DNA of 35,334 nt, taken from contig JAZSNU010000016.1 of the NCBI GenBank assembly GCA_045536565.1, positions 1-35,334 of the forward strand, read 5' to 3'. The DNA is from Clostridia bacterium. GTDB lineage: Bacteria > Bacillota > Clostridia > TANB77 > CAG-465. Below the pieces are notes generated by a model that worked only from the letters and a program-made list of their open reading frames with translations, was not told the origin of the DNA and did not search any database. The translations under genes were made by a program, and so were the position numbers. Position 1 is the first letter of the stretch. The number at the start of each line of letters is the position of its first letter. This document shows positions 5,837-22,194 of this stretch, one piece after another.

Positions 5837-6100
5837 ATGACAAAGGAAAGAAAAGCAGAACTTATAAAGACTTATGCACAAGGTGAAAATGATACTGGAA
5901 GTACAGAAGTACAAGTAGCATTATTAACTGAAAGAATCAATGAACTTACAGAACACTTAAAAGTTCATAAAAAAGACGAACATTCAAGAAGAGGTCTTTT
6001 AAACATGGTAGGTAAGAGAAAAAGTTTACTAAGATATCTTGAAGGAAGAGATATTGAAAAATACCGTGAATTAATTGCTAAATTAGGAATTAGAAAATAA
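5837..6100 (+). CDS. rpsO: 30S ribosomal protein S15
   Basis: [30 protein letters not shown] signature. Confidence 0.99.
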
Positions 6101-6108
6101 TATCTTAT

Positions 6109-6140
6109 AAGAAACAGTTCAAAATTACTGTTTCTTTTTT
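6109..6140 (+). terminator. rpsO terminator
   Basis: AAGAAACAGT / ACTGTTTCTT stem plus T-run. Confidence 0.8.
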
Positions 6141-6148
6141 ACTTTTTA

Positions 6149-6176
6149 TTGATAAATACATGAAAAAGTATATAAT
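6149..6176 (+). promoter_or_regulatory. SigA promoter of ncRNA copy 1
   Basis: TTGATA(6149-6154)-16 nt-TATAAT(6171-6176). Confidence 0.6.
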
Positions 6177-6182
6177 ATATAT

Positions 6183-6641
6183 ACTGGTTAATTTATATGA
6201 TATTGATACTAACTATGTATCAGGGATTGTATATTAATAATTGTGATTGCTAATTTAAGTAATAATTTACTTGCTTAGTAGCGGCGAGCGAAAGTGCAAG
6301 CATTCCACCAGTAGAAGAACTGTGAGAAGAGCTGATAGGCTATGGGGTGAAGTCGTAACTTTAAATTACTTATTGTGCTGTAAATCACATATTAATATAA
6401 ATTTAGCTATAATATTTTCATTGTATAGTCAATGGATTAGCTATTTAATAGTTTTATCGTGTGGAGAAACGATAAACTAGCAGGGGAGACAAGCAAAATC
6501 TGAATATAATAAATAATGTAGCTAGCAAATTATTTATTGAAATAAGTCAGATTCCTTGTGGGTATAAAGAGTTTTTCCGGAACTCTCCCGAAAGTCTATA
6601 AAGCAGAAAGGGCGGCACAAGTGGGTGTTGTCCTTTTTTTC
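6183..6641 (+). ncRNA. Unassigned structured ncRNA, copy 1 (cargo loop contains rRNA-identical segments)
   Basis: Own promoter and terminator (AAAGGGCGGCAC/GTGTTGTCCTTT + T-run, 6607-6641), no credible ORF, stems covary with copy 2. Confidence 0.7.
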
Positions 6642-6690
6642 TTTTTAAATATGTTATGTATCCAAAAATATCGAATTATCGCGTTAAATA

Positions 6691-6719
6691 TTGACAAATG
6701 TATTTTATAGTAGTATAAT
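6691..6719 (+). promoter_or_regulatory. Consensus SigA promoter of ncRNA copy 2
   Basis: TTGACA(6691-6696)-17 nt-TATAAT(6714-6719). Confidence 0.85.
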
Positions 6720-6725
6720 ATGTGT

Positions 6726-7120
6726 TGTAATAAATGATAATTGATATTAATTATGTATCAAGGTATATTAAATAATGTGCACACCTCCAAACAAAAACCA
6801 CATGTAATATAAAATAAAAGAATAAAAACAAATTGTTTTACTCAAAGAGATTAAATAAAATCGCATGCTTAGCACATTATTTTAATATAAAATTAGTGAT
6901 GAAGTCCAATGGGGTTGGACAGAACTATTTAATAGTATGAAAGTATATAACCGAGGATTACAAGTAATACTAGCAGAGTGATGGGACAAAATCTAAATCA
7001 GTAAAATAGAATTTTCCTTAGCCATTAAATTTTAGTTTATAAATGATTTAGTAGCTCTGTGGATAATTATCCAAATGTCCTAAACTTATGAGCGTCTCGT
7101 AGTAGACGCTCATTTCTTTT
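6726..7120 (+). ncRNA. Unassigned structured ncRNA, copy 2 (paralog of copy 1)
   Basis: Perfect promoter; terminator ATGAGCGTCT/AGACGCTCAT + T-rich tail (7088-7120); same ordered stems and conserved linkers as copy 1. Confidence 0.7.
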
Positions 7121-7170: not shown

Positions 7171-7203
7171 ATGCATATCGTAAAAAAAGATAGAGTGAGG
7201 AAA

Positions 7204-9159
7204 ATGGGCAAAAAAGTAATAATAGCAGAAAAACCAAGCGTTGCAAGAGAATTTGCTAAGGCTTTGAATATAAATGGAAAAAATCAAAATGGGTATATAG
7301 AATCAGATGAATATATAGTTACATGGTGTGTTGGTCATTTAATTACAATGAGTTATCCTGAAAAATATGATGAGTCTTTAAGGTATTGGAATTTAAAGAC
7401 ACTTCCATTCATACCACAAGATTTTAAATATGAGATAATAGAAAATGTATCCAAACAGTTTGATATAGTTTCAAATATATTAAATAGAGAAGATGTTGAA
7501 ACGATATATGTATGTACTGACTCAGGAAGAGAAGGAGAATACATATATAGATTAGTTGATGATATGGCAGGAAATCCAAACAAAGAAAAGAGAAGAGTAT
7601 GGATAGATTCGCAAACGGAGGAGGCTATAAAAGAAGGTATAAATTCGGCTAAAAAGTTAGAAGAATATAACAGTTTATCTGATGCAGCATATTTAAGAGC
7701 AAAGGAAGATTATTTAATAGGTATAAATTTTTCTAGACTTTTATCTATAATATATGGAAAAGATTTAGCAAAAAAACTATCGCAAGATAAAGCAGTAATT
7801 TCCATAGGTCGTGTTATGACCTGTGTACTTGGAATGATTGTAAAAAGAGAAAGAGAGATAAGGGATTTTAAGAAAGTTAATTTCTATAAAATACAAGCGT
7901 TATTCGGTGAAAATGAAGAAACTGGAATTTTATGCGACTGGAAAGCGTCAGAAGGGTCTAAATATTTTGAACATCCTAAGTTATATAATGAAACAGGATT
8001 TAAGAAAAAAGAAGATGCAGAGTTGTTTATAAAGGAACTAAAAGCAGGTAATCAATATGGAATAGTAAAAGAAGTAACTAAAAAAACTCAAAAGGAAAAA
8101 CCACCGCTTTTATTTAATCTTGCTGAAATTCAAAACGAATGTAGTAAAAGATTTAAAATAACACCTGAGGAAACTTTAAATTTTATTCAGGAACTATATG
8201 AGAAAAAGATGGTTACTTATCCAAGAACAGATGCTAGGGTGTTATCTACTGCTATTGCAAAAGAAATAAAGAAAAATTTAAATGGGCTTTTTAAATCAAA
8301 TATAGATAAAGAGATAAAAGAATGTTTGAATAAAATGATAGAAGAAAAATATAGCACAAATTTAATTAAAACAAAATATGTAGATGATTCAAAAATAACA
8401 GAACACTATGCAATAATTCCTACGGGGCAGGGATTTGAAAATTATGAAAAATTAGCAGCGCTTCCAAAAGAGATATACCACTTAATAGTAAGAAGATTTT
8501 TAAGTATATTTTATCCGCCAGCAGAATTTAATAAAATGACTGTAAAGATAAATGTGGGAAATGAAGAGTTTAGTGTAAATGGTAAAGTGTGCATAAATCA
8601 AGGGTATTTAGAAGTTGCAAAACATGAAAAAGTAAAATCATCAAAGGAAGATGAAGAAGCTAAAACGGATAATATAGAGGCGTTAAAAGAGCTGAAAAAA
8701 GGTCAGCAAATTAATTTGATTGATATGAATGTTAAAGAGGGAGAAACCTCTCCACCTAATAGATATTCTTCTGGCTCTATAATACTTGCTATGGAAAATG
8801 CGGGTAAACTAATAGAGGACGAAGAACTTAGAGAACAAATAAAAGGGAGTGGTATTGGAACTAGTGCTACAAGAGCCGAAATAATAAACAAACTTACTAG
8901 AATAGAATATATAGCAATAAACAAAAAGACACAAATACTTACCCCTACTGAAAAAGGAGAGGCTATATATGATATTGTTATAAAGACAATGCCAGATATG
9001 TTAAACCCAAAACTTACTGCAAGCTGGGAAAAAGGACTTACTATGGTTGCTCAAAATGAAATAAAAGCAGATGAGTTTATGAAAAAGCTAGAAGAATATG
9101 TTAGTTCGAAAGTTATTAAACTAAAAAAAGCATATAATAATTTTTATTATGGCATGTAA
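7204..9159 (+). CDS. topB: Type IA DNA topoisomerase (topoisomerase III-like)
   Basis: TOPRIM IAEKPS, TW..GHL, TDSGREGE, catalytic TYPRTD, GIGTSATRA.II. ATG at 7204 after GAGG. Confidence 0.9.
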   Translation: MGKKVIIAEKPSVAREFAKALNINGKNQNGYIESDEYIVTWCVGHLITMSYPEKYDESLRYWNLKTLPFIPQDFKYEIIENVSKQFDIVSNILNREDVETIYVCTDSGREGEYIYRLVDDMAGNPNKEKRRVWIDSQTEEAIKEGINSAKKLEEYNSLSDAAYLRAKEDYLIGINFSRLLSIIYGKDLAKKLSQDKAVISIGRVMTCVLGMIVKREREIRDFKKVNFYKIQALFGENEETGILCDWKASEGSKYFEHPKLYNETGFKKKEDAELFIKELKAGNQYGIVKEVTKKTQKEKPPLLFNLAEIQNECSKRFKITPEETLNFIQELYEKKMVTYPRTDARVLSTAIAKEIKKNLNGLFKSNIDKEIKECLNKMIEEKYSTNLIKTKYVDDSKITEHYAIIPTGQGFENYEKLAALPKEIYHLIVRRFLSIFYPPAEFNKMTVKINVGNEEFSVNGKVCINQGYLEVAKHEKVKSSKEDEEAKTDNIEALKELKKGQQINLIDMNVKEGETSPPNRYSSGSIILAMENAGKLIEDEELREQIKGSGIGTSATRAEIINKLTRIEYIAINKKTQILTPTEKGEAIYDIVIKTMPDMLNPKLTASWEKGLTMVAQNEIKADEFMKKLEEYVSSKVIKLKKAYNNFYYGM

Positions 9160-9175
9160 AAAGAGTTGGAAATAA

Positions 9176-9204
9176 TTGACAAGATAAATGCGAAATGGTA
9201 TAAT
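9176..9204 (+). promoter_or_regulatory. Consensus SigA promoter of putative antitoxin sRNA
   Basis: TTGACA(9176-9181)-17 nt-TATAAT(9199-9204), with an extended -10 TG. Confidence 0.85.
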
Positions 9205-9208
9205 ATAA

Positions 9209-9279
9209 ATACAACTTAGGTTGTATAAAATCGTTCAATTGTTTGCGAGAAGGTAGCTGTAACTATCTTCTCATTTTTT
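9209..9279 (+). ncRNA. Putative type I antitoxin sRNA (~70 nt)
   Basis: 5' hairpin ATACAAC/GTTGTAT; single-stranded TCGTTCAATTGTTTGC complementary to the toxin start region; terminator GAGAAGGTAG/CTATCTTCTC + T6. Confidence 0.75.
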
Positions 9280-9310
9280 GCATATTTTAATTTATATATC
9301 ATAAAATATT

Positions 9311-9336
9311 AGTAGCCTAGCTGTAACTAGGCTACT
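9311..9336 (-). terminator. 3' hairpin/terminator of toxin mRNA
   Basis: AGTAGCCTAG / CTAGGCTACT perfect 10-bp stem, 5 nt after the toxin stop. Confidence 0.7.
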
Positions 9337-9341
9337 TTGGA

Positions 9342-9416
9342 TTACCTCTTATTCTTTTTGTTTAATTCCTTAACAAGTATAATCATTAAGAATAAGATTA
9401 ATATAATTTCGTCCAA
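9342..9416 (-). CDS. Putative type I toxin peptide MDEIILILFLMIILVKELNKKNKR (24 aa)
   Basis: TTG start 7 nt after AGGAGGTG; hydrophobic helix plus basic C-tail; own promoter and 3' hairpin. Confidence 0.8.
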   Translation of the reverse strand: MDEIILILFLMIILVKELNKKNKR

Positions 9417-9455
9417 TTGTTTGCACCTCCTCTCATACCAGAGTTGGTGCTTTTT

Positions 9456-9484
9456 ATTATATCTGCACAAATATTACATTACAA
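9456..9484 (-). promoter_or_regulatory. SigA promoter of toxin gene
   Basis: Minus strand TTGTAA(9484-9479)-17 nt-TATAAT(9461-9456). Confidence 0.65.
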
Positions 9485-9544
9485 GAAATATTAAACTATG
9501 TGACTAAACTATACAAAATACGACAGCAAAAGCATGGAATCGAA

Positions 9545-9573
9545 TTGACATAATATAATTAGCGTGATATAAT
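9545..9573 (+). promoter_or_regulatory. Consensus SigA promoter of 9624 ORF
   Basis: TTGACA(9545-9550)-17 nt-TATAAT(9568-9573) with TG at the extended -10 position. Confidence 0.8.
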
Positions 9574-9623
9574 ATCTAAACAAATTAATCAATTTCTAGA
9601 AAATAATTTTTAAGGAGGATTAT

Positions 9624-10136
9624 ATGATTAAATTTAATGAAGTAAGACTTACAGATGAAGCAAGAAGTAAAATTGTACTATTATACCTTGGATGTAAATT
9701 ACATGGAATTGGAAGCACAAGAATAAATTTTCTTGCTAACCAAGTTATATTATCGGGAGCAACAGGAAAAAAACTTACATTTTCTTCAGCACATGTAATA
9801 TATGATGCAGAAGAATTAATCGATTTCGTATATGATTATATTTATGAAGAGATGAGAAAATTTCTTTATCCAAATGGAAAGGTATTAGATTCTTCTTTTC
9901 TCGAAAGAGATGGTGAAATTCTTTCTGAAAAGGGAGTAATGCTTAAATTAATAAACAAAATATTTGACTTTGATTTCTTTGAAGGAATAGACGATGGTGA
10001 TGTATATATAGCAATTACTGAACAAGTAGCGCTATATACAAACTCTTGTACTACAAGGATAACTACTCTTAAACAAAGTCCTATATATAGACATGTTGAG
10101 TTAGTAAGACAAGCAATAAGAGAATATAGAAAATGA
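9624..10136 (+). CDS. Hypothetical protein (170 aa)
   Basis: AAGGAGG RBS, strong promoter; no motif recognised. Confidence 0.75.
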   Translation: MIKFNEVRLTDEARSKIVLLYLGCKLHGIGSTRINFLANQVILSGATGKKLTFSSAHVIYDAEELIDFVYDYIYEEMRKFLYPNGKVLDSSFLERDGEILSEKGVMLKLINKIFDFDFFEGIDDGDVYIAITEQVALYTNSCTTRITTLKQSPIYRHVELVRQAIREYRK

Positions 10137-22073: not shown

Positions 22074-22194
22074 TTTTTTTGAAGATGGTATATGTAATAT
22101 ATGCCATCTTTTGTTTTTATAAATTGACATATTATGATATAATTTAGGTGTAATAAAGTGTAATCCATTATTTAATAAAAAAGGAGGAATTTGT

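Follow-up and report, generated by a model that had tools for sequence, protein, structure and literature searches.

The window examined here, a 35,334-nt stretch of DNA (positions 1 to 35,334 of contig JAZSNU010000016.1, assembly GCA_045536565.1), belongs to a metagenome-assembled genome (MAG) of a Clostridia bacterium, G000, which comprises 1,129,409 bases at 28% GC and is judged 100% complete. Between rpsO and a type IA topoisomerase gene it contains two tandem RNA genes, each with its own near-consensus promoter and intrinsic terminator; the first, RNA copy 1, harbors in its variable "cargo" domain exact copies of two functional rRNA segments, helix 13 (H13) of 23S rRNA and the 3′ strand at the top of helix 44 (h44) of 16S rRNA. 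All features lie on the plus strand. The gene for ribosomal protein S15, rpsO (5837-6100; Pfam Ribosomal_S15, E 1.6e-36), is followed by its intrinsic terminator, located by a terminator scan (6109-6136), and by a σ70-type promoter, TTGATA-16-TATAAT (6149-6176), that matches the consensus at 11 of 12 positions. Copy 1 itself (~460 nt, 6186-6645), delimited by the promoter and the terminator and supported by family homologs, opens with a conserved 5′ hairpin, P1 (TTGATACTAACTATGTATCA, 6203-6222), common to copy 2 and relatives, and continues into a long P2 stem that carries the cargo as a variable apical domain (6249-6382). A conserved 3′ domain (6474-6609), matched by the covariance model R1 at 109 bits (E 4e-22), and an intrinsic terminator (6605-6638) complete the gene.

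Copy 2 (6726-7120) is preceded by a promoter with 12 of 12 consensus positions (TTGACA-17-TATAAT, 6691-6719) and ends at a terminator at 7088-7113. It shares the 5′ hairpin and the P2 junction sequences with copy 1, in which the junction reads UAUAUUAAU.../...AUAUUAAUAUAAA, and combines them with a diverged 3′ domain and an unrelated cargo, the central parts of the two RNAs being unalignable. A 158-nt contig from a metatranscriptome library, X3, reproduces the copy 2 cargo with 0 differences (window 6799-6956), which hints at transcription of copy 2. The first letters of this cargo, CACCTCC (6782-6788), equal the core of the anti-Shine-Dalgarno sequence at the 16S 3′ end; such a 7-mer is weak evidence by itself, and copy 2 contains no rRNA match longer than this. 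The topoisomerase gene downstream (7171-9159; Pfam Topoisom_bac and Toprim) and the next open reading frame (ORF), of 170 codons, form an accessory island (7171-10136; loci L193-L196). Four congeners without the RNAs (G001, G002, G004, and G005) have just ~160 nt downstream of rpsO, after which comes the topoisomerase gene in G005 and a P-type ATPase gene in the others, the latter directly following rpsO in three of the five congeners. In the remaining one, G003, rpsO is 95% identical and two RNAs occupy the same site, with cargos that cannot be aligned with those of G000.

The rRNA identities were established against the Escherichia coli K-12 rrnH operon and two rRNA fragments from the same order (L025 and L026). 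A sequence-only reading of this DNA had described both strings as exact rRNA copies set in flanks that are not rRNA, and both statements hold. AGTAGCGGCGAGCGAA (6277-6292) is identical to E. coli 23S 241-256, that is, to H13 with its AGUA/GAA loop-E motif, GC/GC stem, and GGCGA loop, and recurs in the real 23S fragments of L025 and L026; TGGGGTGAAGTCGTAAC (6343-6359) is identical to 16S 1485-1501, including A1492/A1493, and occurs in the 16S 3′ end of L025, where AAGG follows as in true 16S. The rRNA similarity extends over 16-18 nt and no further, the flanks bearing no relation to 23S of E. coli or of the same order; a real 23S gene or a decayed rDNA fragment, in which homology would continue beyond the conserved core, does not fit this pattern. 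In a comparison of the genome with E. coli 16S, 23S, and 5S rRNAs on both strands, only four exact matches of at least 16 nt emerged, namely two real 16S 5′ ends at contig ends and the two motifs, 50 nt apart, and among 200,000 shuffles of the 134-nt cargo just 26 had any match of this length, with 121 having two separate 12-mers. A contig assembled from an independent public run (X2 record 13, 151 nt) covers 6262-6413 with both motifs intact; its four differing letters and one gap are confined to 6314-6319 in the spacer, with substitutions listed at 6314, 6315, and 6319 and a deletion at 6317. A second (X1 record 7) covers 6198-6348 with 1 difference, the word shares of the runs matching the window being all 0.14 or less; only the covered parts of these runs serve as evidence, and their habitat labels do not. 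Because contigs from independent runs cover the site, chimeric assembly, a caveat raised in the sequence-only reading, and primer carry-over are excluded. The Rfam models for 16S and 23S rRNA, RF00177 and RF02541, detected no gene in the G000 contigs or in five relatives, and the 16S 3′ end is absent from all 79 MAGs of the taxonomic family. Since two G000 contigs, C9 (at its end, ~22113-22152) and C12 (at its start, ~10-49), both stop inside the 5′ end of a 16S gene, the organism has at least two rRNA operons, left unassembled.

A structured RNA family

On comparative sequence evidence, RNA copy 1 is a member of a previously undescribed, highly structured RNA family, predicted to be independently transcribed, of 330-470 nt with a fast-changing apical domain. 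The architecture common to its members comprises a 5′ hairpin (UUGAUACUAACUAUGUAUCA), a long P2 stem whose conserved base (UAUGUUAAAG/CUUUGAUAUA) encloses the variable apical domain, one or two more hairpins 3′ of P2, and a conserved 3′ domain with the motif string ..CAGCGGGGAAGAC..GCAAAG..ACGAAUAA..GUCUAUAAAGC, the last element standing ahead of the terminator. In an RNAalifold alignment of 14 sequences of the 3′ domain, 21 of 31 predicted pairs show compensatory changes, and promoter and terminator signals equivalent to those of copy 1 are visible in the homologs. Inspection by eye also turned up extra AGUA/GAA motifs of the loop-E, bulged-G kind in the scaffold (UUUGAAAG pairing with GAGUAAAA is one example), located in the base of P2 (B, G144, and D types of the cargo classes described below) and in P3 (C and D types). 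Cargos that lack H13 (those of G017, G023 copies 1-3, and G202 copies 1 and 3) share the short motifs GUGAGCAAC and CGUGGGCAACC...GCGUAG.

Model R1 finds the RNAs in 13 of the 79 genomes of the taxonomic family (10 of 13 in genus g5, 2 of 6 in g1, including G000, and 1 of 50 in g4) and has no match in a sample of 98 genomes from four other families of the order. Built on the 3′ domain, R1 misses the diverged copy 2, and these counts are therefore lower bounds. Tandem arrays, which hold unrelated cargos, are seen with two copies in G000, G003, and G144, three in G202, and three plus one weak hit in G023. An exact search of genome contigs for the 5′-hairpin pattern returned eight loci, five of them in the family (including L008, L010, L011, and L014, and among them relatives of the G020, G017, and G023 RNAs), the others being chance hits in coding sequence. 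The 3′-domain pattern recovered 30 viral and 114 metagenome loci; all 30 viral loci and 80 of the metagenome ones were scored with R1, without a match, and Rfam 15 holds no match to the window RNAs or to eight homologous loci, even at E = 1-10.

The genomic setting changes with lineage, the neighbors being a peptidase M16 gene; MazF-like and MBOAT genes; Bro-N and MBOAT genes; trmD-rplS; or rpsO and the topoisomerase gene, and within one genus the RNA pair can be present or absent. The weight that the sequence-only reading had placed on a location directly after rpsO thus falls away: the location is not a family feature. In G017 (L036, 484-969) the RNA gene directly follows a gene for a MazF/PemK-type toxin (Pfam E 4e-16); some MazF enzymes cleave rRNA.

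The H13 hairpin and its companions

In copy 1 the H13 segment sits within a hairpin at 6270-6300, which a constrained fold closes by pairing CTTGC (6270-6274) with GCAAG (6296-6300), as the sequence-only reading had proposed. The 16-mer was found in 10 of 401 genomes of the order, in two as true 23S and in eight as part of the cargos of this RNA family; in copy 1 of G144 the motif differs by a single C-to-U change, which preserves the pairing as G·U. The motif is thus present in 9 of the 20 extracted RNA copies, from MAGs of nine species, and in four otherwise unrelated cargo types: type A (G000), type B (G009, G013, G020, G084, G093, and G096), type D (G202 copy 2), and a fourth type (G144 copy 1). 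As in the 23S rRNAs of E. coli, L025, and L026, each type is closed by a different Watson-Crick helix (CUUGC/GCAAG, GUGCUA../..UUGGCAC, CACU/AGUG, and GUUAUUU/AAAUAAU), and, the change in G144 aside, neither the loop-E nucleotides nor the two pairs of the stem nor the GGCGA loop vary. In local alignments to rRNA, the H13 cargos alone reach z = 3.3-6.6, with ten other cargos at z ≤ 1.6. The fold of the whole copy 1 cargo is no better than that of its shuffles (z = -1.13). Because the 16-mer recurs in four unrelated cargo types with different closing helices, the case for a selected, folded module, and for structural mimicry instead of a decayed rDNA scrap as the sequence-only reading had argued, is well backed for the H13 copy. 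The invariance of the GGCGA loop further disfavors a pure stability element, whose loop would be free to vary.

Most of the H13 copies have a companion. A stem-ACCA-stem hairpin lies 22-24 nt upstream of H13 in seven of the nine (the six B-type copies and the D-type copy) and in none of the 11 copies without H13; the genome background of such hairpins is 0.082 per kb. The sole stem-ACCA-stem hairpin of E. coli 23S rRNA, at 406-421, is H22, and the 23S of relatives has GGAG-ACCA-CUCC and GGGGGG-ACCA-UCCCCC at the homologous site. A candidate ACCA hairpin in the window's own copy was rejected on energy, at -29.4 versus -36.6 kcal/mol (~7 worse).

The hairpin also extends to phages. About 5 of the 20 IMG/VR loci that contain the 16-mer are 23S contamination; of the 15 non-rRNA loci left, nine have flanks that form a closing helix at least as stable as -4 kcal/mol versus 1 of 21 loci of a reversed control word (p = 4e-4 by Fisher's test; with each distinct sequence counted once, 8 of 14 versus 1 of 15, p = 0.005), and five versus none of the 21 controls lie in AT-rich DNA without an open frame of 100 codons. 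The unconstrained fold of one phage intergenic element, L221, has an outer stem, a GAGG-ACCA-CCUC hairpin, and the H13 hairpin (z = -2.46), an arrangement shared with the B and D cargos. In L224 (1477-1596) the H13 hairpin occupies a 120-nt spacer between two tRNA-His genes of a phage tRNA array; this fragment also encodes tRNAs with CUA anticodons, i.e., amber-suppressor-like. The folds of L224 and of L206 are no better than shuffles. Three elements from IMG/VR phages of ~68 kb, L206 (143-290), L208, and L200, look tRNA-like by eye, with a D-arm-like 5′ part, a GGUUCGAAUCC T-arm, an H13 hairpin closed by CAAGG/CCUUG in the place of the anticodon arm, and a long insert after H13; ARAGORN called no tRNA at any of them. 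The phage H13 elements have no Rfam match, and three of the phage elements have no BLAST match among GenBank phages. Small basic ORFs after the L207 element were considered as ribosomal proteins and gave no Pfam hit at E ≤ 0.1, and the 'AUCUAAG' of the D type and L207 was dropped as a candidate 23S H11 loop, the strand being one side of a helix in L221.

The second rRNA copy, from 16S h44, can be fitted to the same cargo. The pairing of CATTCCA (6301-6307) with TGGGGTG (6343-6349), which the sequence-only reading suggested would restore the 16S arrangement, is plausible on energy, since a three-way junction containing the CAUUCCA/UGGGGUG helix folds at -36.6 kcal/mol against an unconstrained minimum of -37.5, but it is without comparative support. 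In this junction model AAGUCGUAAC, corresponding to A1492-C1501, would be a single-stranded junction strand. Among 11 phage loci with a 16S 16-mer, 10 resemble chance hits in GC-rich coding sequence; L251 (6315-6331), the lone non-coding-looking hit, has 17 nt identical to 16S 1486-1502 in AT-rich phage intergenic DNA, 3′ of a methyltransferase-like ORF. The 16S motif is probably meaningful, and we see only a small chance that this motif, taken alone, is accidental.

Possible roles of the rRNA copies

What the imitated hairpins do in the ribosome suggests what a copy might do outside it. According to PMC13372681, the 50S E-site pocket is built from the base of H88 and the tips of H13 (G248-C249) and H21; a natural depsipeptide antibiotic binds in this pocket, and resistance to it arises when C249 is deleted; and bL35 makes multiple contacts with H13 and H88, with bL28 drawn as part of the site. 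PMC9935924 describes a tertiary bond between C385 in H21 and G411, the G that precedes ACCA in H22. Because each is linked through H21 in these separate papers, the imitated H13 and H22 seemingly belong to one surface region.

We posit, tentatively and at somewhat less than even probability, that RNA copy 1 works in trans as a decoy or sponge by mimicking the E-site surface of the 50S subunit. A conserved scaffold of 5′ hairpin, long P2 stem, and 3′ domain carries the fast-changing apical domain, which in copy 1 presents a folded imitation of 23S H13; sister RNAs and the phage element pair the H13 copy with an imitation of the neighboring H22, and the 16S 1485-1501 strand of copy 1 would likewise be on display, as a second site. 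Acting in trans, the RNA would thus present a ribosomal surface to its usual ligand and keep that ligand off ribosomes. Mimicry of an H13/H22 surface in trans would best explain the strict conservation of both the hairpin and its loop, the second hairpin from the same surface of the ribosome, the stable and strongly promoted scaffold, and the presence of the hairpin in phage non-coding RNAs. A ribosome-directed toxin or antibiotic is the slightly favored ligand, with the ribosomal proteins bL35/bL28 second, because patchy, fast-turning arrays resemble conflict genes more than housekeeping ones; nothing in the present data discriminates between the two. The identities to rRNA, the hairpins, their recurrence, and the structure of the family are observed; action in trans, the ligand, and any protection are inferences from them.

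Several observations weigh against this proposal. The H13 motif is absent from 11 of the 20 family RNA copies, and 10 of the 14 distinct cargos scored have no significant similarity to rRNA, so the check proposed in the sequence-only reading, whether homologous cargos also match rRNA, comes out positive for part of the family only; the general function of the family cannot be rRNA mimicry and must be broader. The H22-like hairpin is missing from the window's copy and likewise from G144 copy 1, and in a class-wide sample the H13 and ACCA composite was not found outside one genus (2 of 401 genomes). The closeness of the H13 and H22 tips is deduced from two papers, each through H21, and by our own reasoning a decoy would compete with thousands of ribosomes per cell. 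In phages, the 20 loci with the H13 16-mer compare with 21 for the reversed control word; the raw count is at chance level, and the signal therefore lies only in the subset with helices and a non-coding context. At up to one mismatch the 16S motif occurs in 1 of the 79 family genomes, G000 alone; it is therefore without comparative support, and the selection argument of the sequence-only reading does not carry over to it from H13. That reading had also seen the aminoglycoside site in this strand, yet the A-site partner strand, 16S 1404-1410, is not imitated, and the drug pocket is therefore not rebuilt.

Other explanations account for parts of these data. The H13-like hairpin, alone or with the ACCA hairpin, could be a self-contained folding module that serves the tertiary structure of the RNA itself or binds a dedicated protein unrelated to the ribosome. 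Its rRNA identity would then stem from ancient capture or from convergent evolution of a highly stable fold, and the RNA and the ribosome would have no ligand in common. The other AGUA/GAA loop-E motifs seen by eye near the P2 base and in P3 suggest that the family uses this motif class generally, most cargos lack rRNA similarity, and the hairpin always lies within a multi-helix junction, all of which fit such a module; yet the five nucleotides of the loop and both pairs of the stem match rRNA exactly in all four cargo types and in several phage RNAs, whereas their surroundings differ throughout, and the co-occurring second hairpin, found once in 23S, is hard to explain without the ribosome. 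We consider this explanation unlikely. A housekeeping regulator that sequesters unbound bL35, bL28, or both, or else an assembly factor recognizing H13, and thereby tunes ribosome biogenesis seems no more probable, its likelihood being a share of that already given to the trans-acting mimic. It would be the trans-acting counterpart of the ribosomal protein operon leaders that mimic rRNA, a logic established for such leaders (PMC7247131), and would draw on the bL35-H13 contact in the ribosome (PMC13372681). Two of the genomic contexts follow ribosomal protein genes, rpsO in G000 and G003 and trmD-rplS in G144, but the remaining ones are unrelated to translation, the RNAs are unlinked to rpmI and rpmB (single-copy genes on contigs C12 and C5), and their presence in 13 of 79 family genomes with gain and loss within a genus would be unexpected for a core regulator.

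The sequence-only reading had offered as an alternative a guide or template that directs a trans-acting enzyme to rDNA. In the form considered here, the exact matches of 16-18 nt, a guide-like length, would lead a nuclease, a recombinase, or a reverse transcriptase acting in trans to rDNA or rRNA, and an invariant target would account for the invariant motif. In L213, a viral contig rich in GC, an ORF that is reverse transcriptase-like by eye only lies ~45 nt downstream of the 16-mer (6824-6839), whose closing helix is GC-rich. This alternative is very improbable, because the motif is folded and sense to rRNA and neither an effector gene nor another genomic target was found: none of the six family contexts examined has an adjoining nuclease, transposase, or reverse transcriptase gene, a hairpin with a covarying closing helix reproduces the fold of rRNA itself and is the opposite of an accessible guide, and searches of copies 1 and 2 against the rest of the genome gave only AT-rich matches of at most 16 nt, at chance level. 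Chance or artefact, whether by random matches, primer carry-over, or chimeric assembly, might be suspected given that both motifs overlap widely used primer sites, that the 16-mer is printed in four papers, and that single 16-mers do hit very large databases by chance, as the 21 loci of the reversed control illustrate. Against it stand the rarity of the motifs in the genome scan and in the cargo shuffles, the independent contigs that cover both motifs and vary only between them, and the recurrence in MAGs of nine species with covarying flanks; overall it is exceedingly improbable, and for the H13 motif it is refuted.

A bolder form of the decoy proposal, which we regard as rather unlikely, is that gut Clostridia and some phages encode display RNAs presenting correctly folded exact copies of vulnerable rRNA sites as decoys, the sites being the H13/H22 E-site surface and, in G000, also the 16S decoding strand. 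If true, display RNAs would amount to RNA-based ribosome protection or counter-defense by mimicry, and their hypervariable tandem-array cassettes would turn over as the attacking toxins, antibiotics, or defense nucleases change.

Relation to known RNA systems

An exact copy of a universally conserved 23S hairpin thus appears in free-standing bacterial RNAs and in phage non-coding RNAs, some within tRNA arrays, and the RNAs of the window define a new family of structured RNAs whose variable domain is cassette-like. To our knowledge, the only known cases of rRNA mimicry are leaders that act in cis on ribosomal protein genes, and neither our literature searches nor Rfam 15 yielded this RNA family, a free-standing H13 mimic, or a leader for L35 or L28. 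Since the H13 tip is part of the E-site pocket, contacts bL35, and binds an antibiotic (PMC13372681), a portable imitation of it points to an unrecognized interaction, possibly a decoy for ribosome-directed toxins or drugs, a ribosomal protein sponge, or a phage tool for manipulating host ribosomes. The module is small (~30-100 nt) and has a universal rRNA counterpart, and its binding is therefore directly testable with standard ribosomal proteins.

The nearest relatives in logic are the leaders of ribosomal protein operons (L20, S15, S4, S8, and L1), in which, according to PMC7247131, an extra-ribosomal RNA reproduces the nucleotides and local fold of a protein site in rRNA; the main text of that paper contains no occurrence of L35 or L28. 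Copy 1 resembles them in reproducing the binding-site nucleotides together with their fold, 16 of 16 nt plus a closing helix. The leaders, however, are cis-acting 5′ untranslated regions of the gene for the bound protein and usually copy few nucleotides, whereas copy 1 holds a 16-nt exact copy in a stand-alone gene with its own promoter and terminator, bounded by terminators between rpsO and the topoisomerase gene, with rpmI and rpmB located elsewhere. From CRISPR RNAs (crRNAs), omega RNAs, and bridge RNAs the window RNAs differ in having neither a neighboring effector gene nor an accessible complementary guide segment.

Large structured RNAs associated with phages and tRNAs, such as ROOL and GOLLD, are likewise ornate RNAs of several hundred nucleotides from Firmicutes and phages, and some of the phage H13 hairpins lie in tRNA arrays; these and all other Rfam 15 families differ from the window RNAs in that none of their models matches them. 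ToxI, the antitoxin RNA of a type III toxin-antitoxin system, also consists of tandem RNA units and neutralizes an RNA-cleaving protein as a pseudo-substrate. ToxI units, however, are 36-nt direct repeats processed by the adjacent toxin gene's product, whereas the units described here are independent genes of ~400 nt with no conserved neighboring protein gene. The role proposed here also resembles that of the protein-sponge or mimic RNAs such as 6S RNA and CsrB/RsmZ, which are abundant, act in trans, and capture the partner of a natural nucleic-acid ligand by imitating that ligand. Those RNAs are conserved and single-purpose, whereas the family to which copy 1 belongs combines a hypervariable, putative display domain with tandem arrays and a patchy distribution.

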